Below are positions 1,109 to 13,387 of a stretch of 15,691 nucleotides of DNA, in pieces. Location of the stretch: IMG/VR virus record IMGVR_UViG_2778261058_000019; one strand, 5' to 3'. The position numbers and the translations under genes are program-made. Origin of the DNA: a virus (taxonomy: Duplodnaviria > Heunggongvirae > Uroviricota > Caudoviricetes). The notes under the pieces were generated by a model, which saw nothing but the letters and a program-made list of their open reading frames with translations, did no database searches and was not told the DNA's origin. Within the stretch, counting starts at the first letter, position 1, and each line of letters opens with the position of its first letter.

Positions 1109-2158
1109 GTGCGGGTATTACTTAGACCTGTTCTGGTGCCTGAGCTTGGGCTGGTGGTCCTTAAGCCGGGCCGTGAATCCATACAGATATTTCATAATCC
1201 TCGAGTGCTGGTGGAACCGGAACCAAAAAGCATGCGTAATCTGCCATCCGGAGTCGTTCCTGCCGTTCGCCAGCCGCTGGCGGAAGACAAAACATTGCTG
1301 CCGTTTTTTAGTAACGAACGGGTGATTCGTGCTGCTGGCGGCGTTGGCGCATTGTCCGACTGGCTATTACGTCATGTTACATCCTGCCAGTGGCCTAATG
1401 GCGATTACCATCACACTGAAACAGTCATTCACCGTTATGGTACCGGCGCAATGGTGTTGTGCTGGCACTGCGACAACCAACTGCGTGACCAGACATCGGA
1501 ATCACTGGAGCTGCTTGCTCAACAAAATCTGACAGCATGGGTGATTGACGTCATCCGTCACGCAATAAGCGGTACGCAGGAGCGGGAATTATCTTTGGCT
1601 GAATTATCCTGGTGGGCGGTCTGCAATCAGGTGGTGGATGCACTACCTGAGGCTGTATCGCGTCGTTCGCTGGGATTACCAGCGGAAAAAATCTGCTCGG
1701 TGTACCGCGAAAGCGACATCGTACCGGGAGAGCAGACCGCCACCAGCATATTGAAACAACGCACAAAAAATCTTGCACCGTTGCCTTACGCCCACCAGCA
1801 ACAAAAATCACCACAGGAAAAGACGGTGGTAAGCATCACCGTTGATCCAGAGTCTCCGGAATCTTTCATGAAGCTGCCTAAACGTCGCCGCTGGGTTAAG
1901 GAGAAATACACACGTTGGGTTAAGACACAGCCGTGTGCTTGCTGCGGTATGCCAGCCGACGATCCGCATCATCTGATTGGTCACGGGCAGGGCGGAATGG
2001 GAACAAAAGCACATGATCTCTTTGTGTTGCCTTTGTGCAGAAAGCATCACAACGAGCTGCATACGGATACAGTGGCATTTGAAGATAAGTATGGCTCCCA
2101 ACTGGAGCTGATATTTCGTTTTATCGATCGCGCGCTGGCAATTGGCGTACTGGCGTAA
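1109..2158 (+). CDS. ydfU: YdfU-like prophage protein (349 aa) with HNH-like Cys/His motif at the C-terminus
   Basis: Long ORF ending TAA 2156-2158. GTG 1109 follows GGAGG (1100-1104) and gives 349 aa, the length I recall for YdfU; the ORF track begins at an upstream ATG (1070, 362 aa). C-terminus reads CACCGMPADDPHHLIGH...CRKHHNELH. Confidence 0.65.
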   Translation: MRVLLRPVLVPELGLVVLKPGRESIQIFHNPRVLVEPEPKSMRNLPSGVVPAVRQPLAEDKTLLPFFSNERVIRAAGGVGALSDWLLRHVTSCQWPNGDYHHTETVIHRYGTGAMVLCWHCDNQLRDQTSESLELLAQQNLTAWVIDVIRHAISGTQERELSLAELSWWAVCNQVVDALPEAVSRRSLGLPAEKICSVYRESDIVPGEQTATSILKQRTKNLAPLPYAHQQQKSPQEKTVVSITVDPESPESFMKLPKRRRWVKEKYTRWVKTQPCACCGMPADDPHHLIGHGQGGMGTKAHDLFVLPLCRKHHNELHTDTVAFEDKYGSQLELIFRFIDRALAIGVLA

Positions 2159-2171
2159 GTGGAGAACGAGC

Positions 2172-2924
2172 ATGAACCTTGAAGCCTTACCAAAATATTA
2201 CTCCCCAAAATCTCCAAAATTGAGCGATGACGCTCCAGCGACAGGCACCGGTTGTTTAACAATTACGGATGTAATGGCAGCGCAGGGGATGGTGCAGTCG
2301 AAAGCACCACTTGGGTTGGCCTTATTTCTGGCAAAAGTTGGTGTTCAGGACCCTCAGTTTGCGATTGAAGGCCTGCTAAATTACGCGATGGCACTGGATA
2401 ACCCGACATTGAACAAATTGAGTGAAGAAATCCGGTTACAGATTATTCCTTACCTCGTGAGTTTTGCCTTTGCTGATTACTCCAGGTCTGCGGCAAGTAA
2501 GGCTCGCTGTGAGCATTGTTCAGGTACGGGATTTTATAATGTATTGCGCGAAGTGGTGAAACACTACAGACGCGGGGAATCTGTAATCAAGGAAGAATGG
2601 GTGAAGGAACTATGTCAGCATTGCCATGGTAAGGGCGAAGCCAGCACAGCGTGCAGAGGGTGTAAGGGTAAAGGGATTGTTCTGGATGAAAAAAGAACCC
2701 GGTTTCATGGCGTACCGGTATATAAGATTTGTGGGCGTTGTAATGGAAACCGGTTTAGTCGTTTACCGACCACGCTGGCACGACGTCATGTCCAGAAGCT
2801 GGTACCAGACCTGACCGATTATCAGTGGTATAAGGGGTATGCGGACGTCATTGGTAAACTGGTAACAAAGTGCTGGCAGGAAGAAGCATACGCGGAAGCG
2901 CAATTGAGGAAGGTGACGAGATAA
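2172..2924 (+). CDS. quuQ: Late-gene antiterminator Q homolog (250 aa) with four DnaJ-type CxxCxGxG repeats
   Basis: ATG 2172 follows GGAG (2161-2164) and gives 250 aa; the ORF track starts at an in-frame TTG at 2142. It sits just upstream of a promoter-plus-terminator module and the lysis genes, as Q does in lambdoid phages. Cys repeats are CEHCSGTG, CQHCHGKG, CRGCKGKG and CGRCNGN. Confidence 0.7.
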   Translation: MNLEALPKYYSPKSPKLSDDAPATGTGCLTITDVMAAQGMVQSKAPLGLALFLAKVGVQDPQFAIEGLLNYAMALDNPTLNKLSEEIRLQIIPYLVSFAFADYSRSAASKARCEHCSGTGFYNVLREVVKHYRRGESVIKEEWVKELCQHCHGKGEASTACRGCKGKGIVLDEKRTRFHGVPVYKICGRCNGNRFSRLPTTLARRHVQKLVPDLTDYQWYKGYADVIGKLVTKCWQEEAYAEAQLRKVTR

Positions 2925-2955
2925 ATGATTTTTGCTGAAGATGGCGACATGATGT

Positions 2956-2984
2956 TTGCATTTTTCAAAAAATATGGATAAAAT
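2956..2984 (+). promoter_or_regulatory. Candidate Q-dependent late promoter (PR'-like)
   Basis: TTGCAT (2956-2961), 17-bp spacer, TAAAAT (2979-2984), immediately after the Q homolog and about 45 nt before a strong terminator. This is the typical PR'-qut-tR' arrangement; called by eye only. Confidence 0.35.
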
Positions 2985-3030
2985 TTTTTCAACGATGGGC
3001 TTTGTATACCCGACGTTAAGAAAAAGTAGA

Positions 3031-3057
3031 AAACCCGCTGATGAGCGGGTTTTGTGC
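3031..3057 (+). terminator. Rho-independent terminator (tR'-like) after the candidate late promoter
   Basis: Hairpin AACCCGCT-GATG-AGCGGGTT followed by TTTGTGCTTT. Confidence 0.65.
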
Positions 3058-3345
3058 TTTAAATGGGGCAATGGTAATGTTGAATCTCATCCCGGGACTC
3101 ATGTCTGTTAACTTATTATTTAGCTGGTGACTTGGTTATTTGCCTGATGTTTAAAATGTTTTCTTCCAGTACAATGTCCCTAAACACAATGAGTCTGCTT
3201 ATTATATTATTAGCAGAGCTATTACGGCCAAAGTACAGCATAAGCTTTTAAAGCCAATCAACCAGTCATCAAGACAGACGGGGTTATTCATAAAAACTCT
3301 CCATGTGTGATCCGATGGGGCCTGAAATTAAAGCTTTAATATAGC

Positions 3346-7304: not shown

Positions 7305-7460
7305 ATGCGTGAATATCCAAATGGCGAAAAAACACACCTTACTGTAATGGCCGCAGGGTTTCCATCTCTGACCGGAGATCATAAAGTCATTTATGTAGCC
7401 GCGGATCGACATGTTACTTCAGAAGAAATTCTGGAAGCAGCAATAAGGCTCTTGAGTTGA
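7305..7460 (+). CDS. ynfN: YnfN-like small protein (51 aa from ATG 7305; a 76-aa form from ATG 7230 is possible)
   Basis: ORF ending TGA 7458-7460. GGAG at 7290-7293 precedes ATG 7305, giving the 51 aa I recall for YnfN. In-frame upstream ATGs at 7284 and 7230 cannot be excluded. Confidence 0.45.
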   Translation: MREYPNGEKTHLTVMAAGFPSLTGDHKVIYVAADRHVTSEEILEAAIRLLS

Positions 7461-7554
7461 TTTGATGCTATTGCATTGATAATTCAGGAAAATTCTCTTT
7501 GTCTGTTTGTGTAAAATTTAGACTATCGTATGTTGATTATTGCGATGTTTCATC

Positions 7555-7583
7555 TTATCTTTTACACGTTTGCACCATATAAT
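7555..7583 (+). promoter_or_regulatory. Candidate sigma-70 promoter for gnsB
   Basis: TTATCT (7555-7560), 17-bp spacer, perfect TATAAT (7578-7583), about 50 nt upstream of the gnsB ATG. Confidence 0.4.
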
Positions 7584-7631
7584 CGACTTACTGTGTAACT
7601 GGAAAGTCATAACAGACTAAAAGAGGAAATG

Positions 7632-7804
7632 ATGAATATTGAAAACTTAAAAACAAAAGCAGAAGCAGATATTTCTGAATATATAACAAAAAAATTATTG
7701 AACTTAAGAAAAAGACCGGGAAAGAAGTTACCAGTATTCAGTTTACCGCACGGGAAAAAATGACGGGTCTTGAAAGCTATGATGTCAAGATTAATTTAAT
7801 CTGA
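7632..7804 (+). pseudogene. gnsB: gnsB (GnsA/GnsB family), disrupted by a -1 frameshift in an A7 tract
   Basis: From ATG 7632 the frame reads MNIENLKTKAEADISEYITKK, then runs through the A-run at 7688-7694 to a stop at 7761-7763 (43 aa). The next frame continues IIELKKKTGKEVTSIQFTAREKMTGLESYDVKINLI to TGA 7802-7804. Joined, the two parts align without gaps to the 57-aa GnsA/GnsB pattern as I recall it, which needs A8 rather than A7. Confidence 0.6.
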
Positions 7805-7833
7805 TGTATTCAATAATAAAATTTATCCATAAA

Positions 7834-7856
7834 CCTCGTTTTTACGGGGTTTTGTT
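7834..7856 (+). terminator. Weak rho-independent terminator after gnsB
   Basis: Hairpin CCTCG-TTTTTA-CGGGG (one G-U pair) followed by TTTTGTT. Confidence 0.4.
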
Positions 7857-7955
7857 ATATTTGAATGGTTCCGAATATCTAAATCACAATTGTTGATGGT
7901 TTTTATTAAACCAATGCAGTCCGGCTCAGGAGTGAGAGAAGCCGGACGTTATGGT

Positions 7956-8366
7956 TTAGCGTGGTAAGATCTGTGTAGTTTTCTGGATGCTTTCAGTAAA
8001 TAGTAATGAATTATCAAAGGTATAGTAATATCTTTTTTGTTCGTGGATATTTGTAACCCACCGAAAAACTCCTGCTTTAGCAAGGTTTCTTCTGTATTCC
8101 TGAAATGTGATCTCTCTGGATTTCAGCTTATTAGAGGTCGTTTCTATAAGATGCCTATCCTTTGAAAATTTGACAGACACAATGTTTTTTAGGCCCTTTA
8201 ATAACACTGTATTATCATTTTTTAATACAATATGAACATTCTCTGTGGCTAAATAGTAAATGTAATGTGAGACATTGTGACGTTTTAGCTCAGAATAAAA
8301 CCATTGATAGTTTAAATCGTTTCGAACTTTATCAAATATTTGTTTAAAAATGACTACCTGATCCAT
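7956..8366 (-). CDS. ydfO: YdfO-like protein (DUF1398-type, 136 aa)
   Basis: Minus-strand ORF. ATG at 8366-8364 is preceded by GGAAGG about 7 nt upstream and gives 136 aa (MDQVVIFKQ...); the track's 141-aa start at 8381 has no SD. A stem-loop at 7919-7947 lies just past the stop. Confidence 0.65.
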
Positions 8367-8423
8367 AGATAAACCTTCCATGTGATATGAGGGGGCGTAG
8401 TCTGCACGATTATCTAAATTGCT

Positions 8424-8657
8424 TCAATCTGGTCTGACCTGTTTTCTGAGCAATTCAGTAATGTCACTCTTTTCTTTGTTTGCTTCAGAAGAAACTCTTT
8501 TTTCTGAGCACAGTCTCCGGCGGCAGGCTTCAATGACCCAGGCTGAGAAATTCCCGGACCCTTTTTGCTCAAGAGCGATGTTAATTTGTTCAATCATTTG
8601 GTTAGGAAAGCGGATGTTGCGGGTTGTTGTTCTGCGGGTTCTGTTCTTCGTTGACAT
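8424..8657 (-). CDS. ynfO: YnfO-like small protein (77 aa), predicted ribbon-helix-helix DNA-binding fold
   Basis: Minus-strand ORF 57 nt upstream of ydfO on the same strand. Arg-rich N-terminus, then NIRFPNQMIEQINIALEQKG...NFSAWVIEACRRRL, which looks like a strand-helix-helix (Arc/CopG-like) pattern. Fold assignment is inference. Confidence 0.6.
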   Translation of the reverse strand: MSTKNRTRRTTTRNIRFPNQMIEQINIALEQKGSGNFSAWVIEACRRRLCSEKRVSSEANKEKSDITELLRKQVRPD

Positions 8658-8829
8658 GAGGTTGCCCCGTATTCAGTGTCGCTGATTTGTATTGTCTGAA
8701 GTTGTTTTTACGTTAAGTTGATGCAGATCAATTAATACGATACCTGCGTCATAATTGATTATTTGACGTGGTTTGATGGCCTCCACGCACGTTGTGATAT
8801 GTAGATGATAATCATTATCACTTTACGGG

Positions 8830-9040
8830 TCCTTTCCGGTGATCCGACAGGTTACGGGGCGGCGACCTCGCGGGTTTTCGCTATTTATGAAAATTTTCCG
8901 GTTTAAGGCATTTCCGTTCTTCTTCGTCGTAACTTAATGTTTTTATTTAAAATACCCCCTGAAAAGAAAGGAAACGACAGGTGCTGAAAACGAGCTTTTG
9001 GGCCTCTGTCGTTTCCTTTCTCTGTTTTTGGCCGTGGAAT
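8830..9040 (+). other. Lambda-type cos site (cosQ-cosN-cosB); 12-nt cohesive end GGGCGGCGACCT at 8857-8868
   Basis: Bases 8841-8880 read GATCCGACAGGTTACG|GGGCGGCGACCTCGCGGGTTTTCG, the fused right and left ends of phage lambda as I recall them. The roughly 170 bp upstream also resemble the lambda right end, and the downstream region leads into Nu1. Confidence 0.85.
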
Positions 9041-9045
9041 GAACA

Positions 9046-9591
9046 ATGGAAGTCAACAAAAAGCAGCTGGCTGACATTTTCGGTGCGAGTATCCGTACCA
9101 TTCAGAACTGGCAGGAACAGGGAATGCCCGTTCTGCGAGGCGGTGGCAAGGGTAATGAGGTGCTTTATGACTCTGCCGCCGTTATAAGATGGTATGCCGA
9201 AAGGGATGCTGAAATTGAGAACGAAAAGCTGCGCCGGGAAGTTGAAGAACTGCGGCAGGCCAGCGAGACAGATCTCCAGCCAGGGACTATTGAGTACGAA
9301 CGCCATCGACTTACGCGTGCGCAGGCCGACGCACAGGAGCTGAAAAATGCCAGAGACTCCGCTGAAGTGGTGGAAACCGCATTCTGTACTTTCGTGCTGT
9401 CGCGGATCGCAGGTGAAATTGCCAGTATTCTCGACGGGATCCCCCTGTCGGTGCAGCGGCGTTTTCCGGAACTGGAAAACCGACATGTTGATTTCCTGAA
9501 ACGGGATATCATCAAAGCCATGAACAAAGCAGCCGCGCTGGATGAACTGATACCGGGGTTGCTGAGTGAATATATCGAACAGTCAGGTTAA
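9046..9591 (+). CDS. nohQ: Terminase small subunit Nu1 homolog (181 aa), apparently full length
   Basis: MEVNKKQLADIFGASIRTIQNWQEQGMPVLRGGGKGNEVLYDSAAVIRWYAERDAEIEN... is essentially lambda gpNu1 with its N-terminal helix-turn-helix. The 3' end overlaps the start of the terminase A reading frame as in lambda. Symbol by analogy with Qin (nohA/nohQ). Confidence 0.85.
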   Translation: MEVNKKQLADIFGASIRTIQNWQEQGMPVLRGGGKGNEVLYDSAAVIRWYAERDAEIENEKLRREVEELRQASETDLQPGTIEYERHRLTRAQADAQELKNARDSAEVVETAFCTFVLSRIAGEIASILDGIPLSVQRRFPELENRHVDFLKRDIIKAMNKAAALDELIPGLLSEYIEQSG

Positions 9592-11242
9592 CAGGCTGCG
9601 GCATTTTGTCCGCGCCGGGCTTCGCTCACTGTTCAGGCCGGAGCCACAGACCGCCGTTGAATGGGCGGATGCTAATTACTATCTCCCGAAAGAATCCGCA
9701 TACCAGGAAGGGCGCTGGGAAACACTGCCCTTTCAGCGGGCCATCATGAATGCGATGGGCAGCGACTACATCCGTGAGGTGAATGTGGTGAAGTCTGCCC
9801 GTGTCGGTTATTCCAAAATGCTGCTGGGTGTTTATGCCTACTTTATAGAGCATAAGCAGCGCAACACCCTTATCTGGTTGCCGACGGATGGTGATGCCGA
9901 GAACTTTATGAAAACCCACGTTGAGCCGACCATCCGCGATATTCCGTCGCTGCTGGCGCTGGCTCCGTGGTATGGCAAAAAGCACCGGGATAACACGCTC
10001 ACTATGAAGCGTTTTTCCAATGGTCGTGGCTTCTGGTGCCTGGGCGGTAAAGCGGCAAAAAACTACCGTGAAAAGTCGGTGGATGTGGCGGGTTATGATG
10101 AACTTGCTGCCTTTGATGAGGATATTGAACAGGAAGGCTCTCCGACGTTCCTTGGCGACAAACGTATTGAAGGCTCGGTCTGGCCAAAGTCCATCCGTGG
10201 CTCCACGCCCAAAGTGAGAGGCACCTGCCAGATTGAGCGTGCAGCCAGTGAATCCCTGCATTTTATGCGTTTTCATGTTGCCTGCCCGCACTGCGGGGAG
10301 GAGCAGTATCTTAAATTTGGCGACAAAGAGACGCCGTTTGGCCTCAAATGGACGCCGGATGACCCCTCTAGCGTGTTTTATCTCTGCGAGCATAATGCCT
10401 GCGTCATCCGCCAGCAGGAGCTGGACTTTACTGATGCCCGTTATATCTGCGAAAAGACCGGGATCTGGACCCGTGATGGCATTCTCTGGTTTTCGTCATC
10501 CGGTGAAGAGATTGAGCCGCCGGACAGTGTGACCTTTCACATCTGGACGGCGTACAGCCCGTTCACCACCTGGGTGCAGATTGTCAAAGACTGGATGAAG
10601 ACGAAAGGGGATACGGGAAAACGTAAAACCTTCGTGAACACCACGCTCGGTGAGACATGGGAAGCGAAAATCGGCGAACGTCCGGATGCTGAGGTGATGG
10701 CGGAGCGGAAAGAGCATTATTCAGCGCCCGTTCCTGACCGTGTGGCTTACCTGACCGCCGGTATCGACTCCCAGCTGGACCGCTACGAAATGCGCGTATG
10801 GGGATGGGGGCCGGGTGAGGAAAGCTGGCTGATTGACCGGCAGATTATTATGGGTCGCCACGACGATGAACAGACGCTGCTGCGTGTGGATGAGGCCATC
10901 AATAAAACCTATACCCGCCGGAATGGTGCAGAAATGTCGGTATCCCGTATCTGCTGGGATACTGGCGGGATTGACCCGACCATTGTGTATGAACGCTCGA
11001 AAAAACATGGGCTGTTCCGGGTGATCCCCATTAAAGGGGCATCCGTCTACGGAAAGCCGGTGGCCAGCATGCCACGTAAGCGAAACAAAAACGGGGTTTA
11101 CCTTACCGAAATCGGTACGGATACCGCGAAAGAGCAGATTTATAACCGCTTCACACTGACGCCGGAAGGGGATGAACCGCTTCCCGGTGCCGTTCACTTC
11201 CCGAATACCCGAAACTTGCAGTTGCTTATCCGTCAGGCGTGA
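9566..11242 (+). pseudogene. Terminase large subunit (gpA-like), 3'-truncated by a deletion; 558 codons with a short out-of-frame tail
   Basis: GTG 9566 starts MNISNSQVNRLRHFVRAGLRSLFRPEPQTAVEWADANYYLPKES..., which follows lambda gpA (641 aa) as I recall it up to ...LPGAVHFPN near 11207. The frame then reads [11 protein letters not shown] and stops at 11240-11242, so the C-terminal ~90 residues of gpA are missing. Confidence 0.85.
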
Positions 11243-13071: not shown

Positions 13072-13387
13072 AGTGAGACTCTATACGAAATTGGTGTTCA
13101 TATCATAATGCATCTCAGAAAATAATTATGATTATTTTTGTGCATATTTGTATGTACACGTTCGAAAATAAACGAATGCGTATGCAACCCCGTAATTTTG
13201 GTGAGACCCAAAATCGATTTTGTGAAAAATGGCTTTAACTCGGTTTGTTTTTCGAGTTCCGGGCGGACTCAAGGAAGAAGAATAGTGTTGCGTGTTATTT
13301 TAACCAGATTTCAAGTTGTTTGGTCGTGGAAAAGTGGAGCAAAATGTTGTTAAAGTGGAAAAATGATAAAAAAGTAAGTTTATTATA

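Follow-up and report, generated by a model that had tools for sequence, protein, structure and literature searches.

The cos-proximal genes ydfO and ynfO of a Qin-type lambdoid prophage are adjacent but separable accessory modules

Introduction

The lambda morons bor and lom encode outer-membrane proteins with known phenotypes, and the right end of lambda is the first DNA to enter the cell. Two further protein families, DUF1398 (YdfO and YbcV) and YlcI/YnfO, are encoded by phage lambda itself and by most Escherichia coli genomes, yet both are without known function, and no assignment for DUF1398, YdfO, YbcV, YnfO, or YlcI was found in the literature that we searched. Levels of ydfO mRNA rose strongly upon ionic-liquid shock (PMC4077768) and changed upon DicC induction, and ybcV mRNA was elevated in a sabinene-adapted strain. 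We rejected the statement, repeated in PMC4077768, that YdfO overexpression protects against peroxide or oxidative stress, as the paper cited for it reports YfdO, YfdK, and YfdS of CPS-53 and the claim is a mix-up of gene names between YdfO and the YfdO of that prophage. A sequence-only reading of one such locus had described ynfO and ydfO as a two-gene module whose layout resembles regulator-effector or antitoxin-toxin pairs. Here we examine the identity, regulation, and co-occurrence of the two genes.

Results

Position of ydfO and ynfO in a Qin-type prophage

The window, by which we mean the whole 15,691-nt stretch of DNA that was analysed, is a Qin-type defective lambdoid prophage of E. 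coli, and near-identical DNA matches it at 99.8% identity over 99% of its length. Its two genes of interest are already annotated, known Qin-prophage genes: RefSeq annotation of near-identical genomes gives the same two genes under the names ydfO and ynfO, and they are known but uncharacterised moron-type cargo. The locus is arranged as follows.

left end of the window: flanked by relBE and hokD, gene order taken from near-identical DNA
one strand, in order: rem, ydfU, ydfT (Q), cspF, cspB, essD, ydfR, rrrQ, rzpQ, cspI, ynfQ, ynfR, ynfN, gnsB
other strand, next: ydfO, ynfO
after ynfO: cos, nohA (Nu1), terminase large-subunit gene, tail-fibre genes, pinQ, ydfK, ydfJ'
7956..8366, minus strand: ydfO, 136 aa from Met6; the open reading frame extends to an ATG at 8381 (141 aa)
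8424-8657, minus strand: ynfO, 77 aa
8827-8833, plus strand: cosQ (GGGTCCT), position from the phage 434 annotation
8857-8868, plus strand: cosN cohesive-end sequence GGGCGGCGACCT, identical in sequence to the right and left ends of lambda
9046-9591: Nu1/nohA

To the left of the two genes lie the lysis genes and five plus-strand cargo genes (cspI, ynfQ, ynfR, ynfN, and gnsB). Both ydfO and ynfO occupy the minus strand, opposing late transcription, in the interval from the lysis/cold-shock cargo to cos, and the ynfO ATG lies 199 nt from the cos nick, reading inward. The orientation against the late operon and the moron position beside cos, both proposed earlier, were confirmed by the open reading frame coordinates and by the positions of cosN and Nu1/nohA. 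The reported gap of 57 nt between the genes holds for the RefSeq start at Met6 (ATG 8366) but shrinks to 42 nt with the 141-aa open reading frame. Met6 is the likelier ydfO start, because GGAAGG lies 7 nt upstream of it and a 1-nt indel in lambda puts the upstream ATG out of frame. An Rfam scan of positions 7400-9200 returned no RNA family, with sub-threshold miRNA noise at cosB only.

Both genes are real and under purifying selection

The ydfO open reading frame (7956-8381) matched Pfam DUF1398 (PF07166) at 1.7e-46 and 157.5 bits (cut-off 22), with YdfO residues 13-131 covering profile positions 1-119 of 119, and YdfO is identical at 140 of 141 residues to PDB 2HH8, the K-12 "hypothetical protein ydfO." YnfO matched Pfam DUF3950 (2.7e-21, 75.6 bits, cut-off 25) and NCBIfam YlcI_YnfO_N (NF041551; 3.3e-09, 36.6 bits, cut-off 30). 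These matches, together with the 2HH8 identity, confirmed that the genes encode YnfO and a DUF1398-type YdfO. Comparison of ydfO with lambda ybcV gave a dN/dS of 0.18, and comparison of the ynfO N-terminal domain with that of BP-4795 gave 0.09, both indicating purifying selection; alleles of the ynfO N-terminal domain differ almost entirely at third codon positions. Given the HMM scores, the third-position substitutions, and the low dN/dS values, both ydfO and ynfO are real genes, far beyond chance.

YdfO has the DUF1398 fold, a duplicated alpha2-beta3 arrangement termed "YdfO-like," and its model matched the fold of the solved member 2HH8, which was also the sole match in the structure search. 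No enzyme-like or toxin-like fold emerged from the structure comparison, and a Foldseek search of the YdfO model against viral predicted structures gave no match at E <=0.001. The protein is basic (net charge +9) and carries no membrane, hydrophobic, or signal-like segment. Few residues of DUF1398 are invariant or nearly so (L32, T46, G104, Y40, N48, A101, W108, R117, and Y119), with no classic catalytic nucleophile or acid/base residue among them. Most likely, YdfO is a soluble, non-enzymatic protein that would act by binding another macromolecule. The database labels "putative envelope protein" and "head protein" were set aside as unsupported, the protein having no membrane or signal-like segment and the gene being antisense to the late operon. 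DUF1398 is a small family, accounting for 205 of the 50%-identity clusters in a set of 1.84 billion representatives, many of these clusters being fragments, and all named-organism genomic matches were to Enterobacteriaceae.

YnfO consists of a conserved domain and a junction-dependent tail

Two parts of ynfO are readily distinguished.

8511..8657, minus strand: N-terminal domain (residues 1-49), DUF3950/YlcI_YnfO_N, a basic strand-helix-helix (RHH-like)
8424..8510, minus strand: C-terminal tail (residues 50-77), junction dependent and hypervariable between relatives, GC 36.8%

Residues 1-49 contain 10 K+R against 3 D+E. When relatives of YnfO were aligned, these residues were nearly invariant and the tails were unrelated in both sequence and length. 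Alignment with lambda located the boundary. Homology between lambda and Qin runs through ydfO/ybcV up to the motif AATCTGGTCTGACCT, after which lambda has about 590 bp that are absent from Qin and carry the plus-strand gene ybcW; homology resumes at about codon 48 of ynfO, and from there to cosN the DNA is 100% identical. Since homology resumes at that codon, the 64-aa "hypothetical protein" next to cos in lambda is the YnfO N-terminal domain with a different tail. In phage 434, bor comes after ylcI, and BP-4795 has a DUF3950 gene between Rz and an HNH-TerS-TerL packaging module but no DUF1398 gene. Beyond codon 49 the reading frame runs across the mosaic junction to whichever stop comes first, so that the odd, hypervariable tails of YnfO-family proteins are accounted for as by-products of these junctions. 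A tblastn match of YnfO in Pasteurella phage Pmp7 was discarded, as it lies on the strand opposite an annotated repressor gene.

Whether YnfO is a ribbon-helix-helix (RHH) protein was examined by several routes. The AF2 monomer model has an extended segment (residues 13-18) and two helices (19-32 and 34-58), although its mean pLDDT was only 67.7 and the strand has no partner. In PHROG, 11 of 12 YnfO family members gave sub-threshold matches to a HicB-like family (best E 0.006) and two gave sub-threshold matches to Arc-like repressor families (E 0.25-0.32). Among 12 YnfO relatives, Pfam returned no RHH family at E <=10; PDB sequence searches, with a single sequence or a profile, gave chance matches only; and Foldseek of the YnfO model against the PDB found nothing (best E 9.4). 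Alignment of the YnfO profile by hhalign with approximate RHH sequences gave E 0.03 for NikR-N and was otherwise uninformative. Thus, none of Pfam, PDB, Foldseek, and PHROG linked YnfO significantly to a recognised RHH family by sequence or by structure. In the HMM and structure predictions that had been suggested as a check, both family profiles scored above cut-off and YdfO has the 2HH8 fold; YnfO had no significant RHH match. Of the earlier description of YnfO as RHH-like, the extended-segment/two-helix model and the sub-threshold PHROG matches remain, whereas Pfam RHH, PDB sequence, and Foldseek matches are lacking. An RHH-like YnfO is a reasonable and plausible reading rather than demonstrated membership of the class.

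ydfO is an AT-rich, moron-type gene with a conserved promoter-like block

The following elements surround ydfO.

8399..8443, minus strand: promoter-like block of ydfO, with PdhR box, -35-like, and -10-like elements
8431-8439: PdhR box GGTCTGACC, within SELEX site 8427-8443
8427-8422, minus strand: -35-like TTGAAG of ydfO
8404-8399, minus strand: -10-like CAGACT of ydfO
7919..7947: GC-rich hairpin (GTCCGGC...GCCGGAC), just downstream of ydfO and of the convergent gnsB, read from the sequence

The pattern GACCAGATTGAAG-N17-CAnACT occurs at the same distance upstream of YdfO-type, YbcV-type, and most YcgX-type genes. The proteins themselves share only about 45% identity, yet the promoter-like block is conserved, and lambda-Qin homology ends exactly at its upstream edge. 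A PdhR SELEX site has been reported for both "ynfO>ydfO" and "ybcV<>ybcW," and ybcV mRNA was down 10-fold in a pdhR mutant (PMC7660256). The block overlaps the neighbouring gene: the ynfO stop codon (8426-8424) lies inside the -35-like hexamer, and the last six ynfO codons and the TGA stop are encoded by the PdhR box and this hexamer.

A consensus promoter scan of 7600-9100 returned zero sites. A terminator scan over the same interval flagged one minus-strand terminator-like site, which lies inside ydfO and is probably due to chance, and none between ynfO and ydfO. The hairpin at 7919-7947 escaped the scan because its loop exceeds 8 nt, and it may be a bidirectional terminator. The promoter-like block and this hairpin are a putative promoter and a putative terminator of ydfO.

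At 31.6%, the GC content of ydfO stands well apart from that of the ynfO N-terminal domain (49%), nohA (52.7%), and the window (44.9%). Presence and absence among related phages was likewise moron-like, as lambda and Qin have a ydfO-type gene and phage 434 and BP-4795 do not. The moron character attributed to this position was therefore borne out for ydfO by its deviant composition, its patchy presence, and its own conserved promoter-like block.

The ynfO-cos spacer carries FNR and Fur sites

Between ynfO and cos, three features stand out.

8718..8731: perfect FNR box TTGATGCAGATCAA, its centre 67.5 nt upstream of the ynfO ATG
8727-8739 and 8747-8759: 13-nt inverted repeat, its left arm overlapped by the FNR box
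8801..8819: Fur box agreeing with GATAATGATAATCATTATC at 16/19 positions, between cosQ and the FNR box

That Fur and FNR bind their sites here, and PdhR its site before ydfO, has been published. The Fur box, the only match of at least 16 in the window, is the gel-shift-confirmed 22.3-bit Fur site "nohA -233" (PMC2189734), and 49 of the 53 distinct upstream variants, which are closely related to each other, keep a 16/19 box. The FNR box is a target by ChIP-chip and EMSA under the names "nohA/ydfO" and "nohB" (PMC1802558), and an FNR ChIP-seq peak falls here; Myers et al. grouped the "nohA" region with feoABC and proposed that Fur masks FNR activation (PMC3688515). These sites, long listed under nohA or nohB, lie upstream of ynfO/ylcI, a target not considered in those studies. 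The sole reporter test of the FNR-site region was made in the nohA direction, and activity was low and FNR independent (PMC1802558).

Either direction of transcription can be fitted to the DNA. Leftward, a -10-like GACAAT (8696-8691) would give the FNR box the classic class II position of about -41.5, with the Fur box far upstream at about -127 from the predicted start, a poor position for repression. Rightward, CATAAT (8750-8755) is a possible -10 for the nohA direction and would place FNR at about -38 and the Fur box downstream of the start. The FNR and Fur sites may serve the leftward ynfO unit.

Adjacency is absent from diverged loci

Conservation of the pair next to cos had been proposed as a check, and it went against an obligate partnership. 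In sequenced phages, 153 records encode the YnfO N-terminal domain, compared with only 43 for a DUF1398 protein. Loci from IMG/VR and GTDB genomes were then re-analysed by DUF1398 subtype; for the DUF1398 contig profile search the narrower alignment was used, as broad alignments held no conserved stretch. An RHH-like gene was scored upstream as follows.

Qin-type (YdfO) loci: 69/70, less than 150 nt away on the same strand
lambda/DLP12-type (YbcV) loci: 61/65 within 1.5 kb, with opposite-strand ybcW between in 65/65
YcgX-type loci: 0/14
Kluyvera/Salmonella-type loci: 0/24

The cos-adjacent loci are close relatives whose shared layout is largely one inherited block rather than independent evidence. 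It is the diverged loci that are informative, and there the partnership vanishes in both directions, with a ynfO-type partner in 0 of 38 diverged DUF1398 loci. Across complete E. coli genomes, 8386 places with the cos-proximal ynfO block were counted against 3876 ydfO-like places, and the contiguous ynfO-ydfO pair occurred in 2675 of 5426 genomes, all counts including partial matches. Insertion sequences have struck each side separately: IS1 splits ydfO in some strains, and in some loci IS elements lie directly upstream of ynfO and replace its upstream region, with ydfO intact. The genes adjoin each other in Qin because no other cargo is inserted between them.

The likeness to a regulator-effector or antitoxin-toxin pair thus did not hold. 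Co-occurrence is not obligate in either direction, ybcW intervenes in lambda/DLP12-type loci, a PADLOC scan of YdfO, YnfO, YnfN, and GnsB for defence or toxin-antitoxin models gave no match, and both YdfO and YbcV have been overproduced alone. We conclude that ydfO and ynfO are two independent, separable accessory modules and not a toxin-antitoxin or obligate regulator-effector pair.

Discussion

On balance, we lean towards an account in which two real accessory genes stand side by side in the Qin-type arrangement while being separable in both evolution and regulation, ynfO belonging to a cos-proximal block, ydfO being an autonomous moron, and leftward expression from the prophage falling under host global regulators. 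It draws on the gene identities, purifying selection, separability, composition break, and regulatory-motif conservation observed here. The first 49 codons of ynfO would encode a small, basic, probably dimeric RHH-like DNA-binding domain, and whatever follows would be supplied by the local mosaic junction, so that here the tail runs into the ydfO promoter. For its part, ydfO would be an AT-rich, self-contained unit comprising a weak promoter with a PdhR site, the coding sequence, and the hairpin. Since both genes read leftward, antisense to late transcription, they would be expressed from the prophage and not in lytic growth, at levels probably set by host global regulators through the FNR and Fur sites of the ynfO-cos spacer and the PdhR site before ydfO. 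In the Qin arrangement, with its 57-nt gap and no terminator between the genes, ydfO probably also receives read-through from ynfO. YnfO may bind DNA and autoregulate, and YdfO may serve as a binding protein in lysogen physiology.

Several features of the Qin-type layout could also be read as a dedicated regulator-effector operon, with YnfO a specific repressor of ynfO-ydfO that controls YdfO dosage. The genes are co-oriented, close, and uninterrupted by a terminator; they adjoin each other in 69 of 70 Qin-type loci, and 2675 of 5426 E. coli genomes have them contiguously. YnfO combines a basic character with an RHH-like pattern, and a natural TGA-to-TGG variant (P0002) fuses both open reading frames in frame. 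We nevertheless consider this operon rather unlikely, as about 110 of the 153 phages retain the YnfO domain without any DUF1398 gene, an opposite-strand gene sits between the two in lambda/DLP12-type loci, and diverged DUF1398 genes keep the promoter block without a ynfO-type neighbour. The fusion variant is rare (6 contigs) and is in frame only with the upstream ATG, which is probably not the real start. Very little credence attaches to a type II toxin-antitoxin or abortive-infection pair, in which the tail of an RHH antitoxin YnfO would neutralise a YdfO toxin. A small upstream RHH-like gene before a larger downstream one does recall RHH-type antitoxin/toxin operons, as do the weak PHROG match to a HicB-like family and a variable tail reminiscent of the partner-binding tails of antitoxins, and ydfO has been called "essential only by TraDIS" (PMC5821084). 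That TraDIS list, however, is dominated by AT-rich horizontally acquired or prophage genes with low insertion density (PMC5821084). Moreover, neither YdfO nor YnfO had a PADLOC match, co-occurrence is not obligate in either direction, and the YdfO fold is unlike known toxins. YdfO was overproduced alone for its NMR structure (2HH8), and living cells carrying a ybcV (ASKA) overexpression clone were scored for glycogen in a screen (PMC2853380). The YnfO tail is encoded by promoter DNA of the neighbour and differs with each junction, and ydfO stays intact in loci where IS elements lie immediately upstream of ynfO.

The position of ynfO raises a further alternative, namely that YnfO is a packaging or cos-associated factor or a hitch-hiker with cos, conserved through cosQ/cosN linkage or a genome-end role, with ydfO irrelevant. 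In lambda-type phages 199 nt separate the start of the gene from the cos nick, in BP-4795 it adjoins a different packaging module (HNH-TerS-TerL), and Qin and lambda share 100% identical DNA from ynfO codon ~48 through to cosN, with flanking DNA that differs. However, the substitution pattern reflects selection on protein and not on DNA alone, and the gene runs against late transcription, the phase in which packaging proteins are produced; we know of no requirement for the ynfO/ylcI open reading frame in lambda packaging. This alternative therefore appears quite improbable. A bolder extension of the separable-modules account, to which we assign a similarly small probability, is that the last ~900 bp of a lambda-type genome form a host-signal-gated "first-in" unit. 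The start of ynfO is 199 nt from the right end, which enters the cell first, and the gene reads inward from behind the bound FNR and Fur sites. YnfO, as a minimal RHH-like regulator, and the DUF1398 protein, whose fold is family specific and limited to Enterobacteriaceae, would then be made in anaerobic, iron-poor, gut-like conditions, at once on infection or in the lysogen, and the DUF1398 protein would bind a host or competing-phage target and alter lysogen fitness or superinfection. If so, the published "nohA" entries of the FNR and Fur regulons would really describe control of the leftward unit.

Recognising ydfO and ynfO as separable removes the expectation of a toxin-antitoxin system and leaves ydfO as an autonomous cargo gene with its own conserved control region. 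Should the leftward unit be driven by the FNR and Fur sites, cargo induced by anaerobiosis and iron limitation would lie beside cos in lambda-type prophages, which would be relevant to the fitness of lysogens in the gut.

Relation to known systems can be drawn at several levels. As with the lambdoid morons bor and lom of lambda, ydfO lies in the right-end accessory region, with deviant base composition and presence or absence among relatives, and like bor it is transcribed leftward, against the late operon. Unlike the bor and lom products, YdfO is cytoplasmic and without known phenotype, and the promoter and terminator of its gene are putative. With the RHH repressors (P22 Arc and Mnt, CopG, and the HicB C-terminal domain), YnfO shares its size, basic N-terminal arm, and predicted extended segment with two helices, and its "F-P...G-x-x-S...E-A...L" pattern resembles the RHH_1 consensus by eye; unlike them, it has one extra residue in the inter-helix loop and no significant HMM or fold match. 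The spacer resembles FNR-activated, Fur-repressed promoters such as feoABC in pairing a perfect FNR box with a strong Fur box within a single intergenic region, each shown by experiment to be bound, but here the two boxes are about 85 bp apart and the sole reporter test, in the nohA direction, gave low, FNR-independent activity.

Closest of all are the members of the two families themselves. Within the YlcI/YnfO family (DUF3950, NF041551, and PHROG 949), the N-terminal 49 residues are nearly invariant, and the cos-proximal, inward-reading position of ynfO is the same in lambda, 434, and Stx phages. At residues 50-77, the Qin-type tail is unlike that of lambda/DLP12 because lambda carries the ybcW module at that junction. 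Among the DUF1398 proteins K-12 YdfO (2HH8), YbcV (DLP12), lambda p78, and YcgX, the gene described here is the same as that for K-12 YdfO, with nothing material that differs, and its position beside cos is the one seen in lambda and DLP12.

Regulatory sites between ynfO and cos

The spacer between ynfO, which encodes a DUF3950 protein, and cosQ contains two regulatory boxes:
8718-8731, perfect FNR box, between ynfO and cosQ
8801-8819, strong Fur box, between ynfO and cosQ

Sequence comparison showed that phage lambda carries the same FNR and Fur boxes, identical to those here. Both boxes by cos are experimentally bound sites, entered in the literature under the name nohA/nohB, and the only reporter test of this region was made in the rightward direction. 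Read leftward, the geometry places the FNR box at about -41.5; none of the cited binding studies considered ynfO or its lambda counterpart ylcI as a target of the FNR and Fur sites. Another Fur-box-like sequence (15/19, minus strand, 13118-13136) lies between pinQ and ydfK.

Overlap and disruption of ynfO and ydfO

The PdhR box and -35-like hexamer of the putative ydfO promoter block also encode the last six codons and TGA stop of ynfO (8424-8444), and the upstream ATG of the long ydfO open reading frame (8381) is in frame with ynfO. A natural TGA-to-TGG variant (protein hit P0002), found in six contigs, yields a DUF3950-DUF1398 fusion of 233 aa. In some strains ydfO is interrupted by IS1 (genome hits H152 and H153; E. 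coli B-1109 and 2023CK-01509), and in three fetched loci (L149, L049, and L015) the usual DNA in front of ynfO extends for only about 38 nt, and everything farther upstream is replaced by sequence unrelated to the cos spacer, possibly through insertion of a mobile element. Thus, both genes tolerate disruption or loss of their promoters.

gnsB (7629-7763) is frameshifted at about 7680-7690, where the window has A7 versus an A8 run in strain MLI105, giving a product of 44 aa versus the 57-aa GnsB; either homopolymer slippage or a sequencing error accounts for this. The terminase large-subunit open reading frame (9566-11242) is cut off after 558 aa, and its C-terminus (final 13 residues not shown) is not that of lambda; related strains carry about 3 kb extra at this site, comprising a full terminase open reading frame, a lom remnant, and a long tail-fiber gene, indicating a deletion junction inside gene A of the window.

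Probable database errors and a mis-citation

Many matches came from contigs of about 3.3-3.6 kb with error-ridden open reading frames (protein hits P0012-P0120 and P0134-P0240; phage records OR974317-OR974325), some attributed to organisms that include Staphylococcus aureus, a Bacillus sp., and a spider. We infer from their appearance that these are lambda right-end control DNA of nanopore sequencing; if so, they would account for DUF1398 having been reported from organisms with no relation to its usual hosts. Lambda genes are also present in "Campylobacter phage CJLB-4" (48,361 bp). DUF1398 is labeled "head protein" in PHROG 413 and RefSeq phage records and "putative envelope protein" in older lambda records (p78), labels that do not fit a soluble, basic product whose gene is antisense to the late operon. 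The statement that YdfO overexpression increases oxidative stress resistance (PMC4077768) is a mis-citation; the proteins in its source (PMC3105296) are YfdO, YfdK, and YfdS of prophage CPS-53.

Diverged DUF1398 genes

Diverged DUF1398 genes are solitary and preceded by long spacers (loci L229 [IMG/VR], 1535-3336, and L090, 6001-6939). One lies in a Salmonella-type prophage, beside a gene for a SopE-like effector, and another, in Kluyvera, adjoins a cold-shock-domain gene, similar to the cold-shock genes that surround ydfO in Qin.
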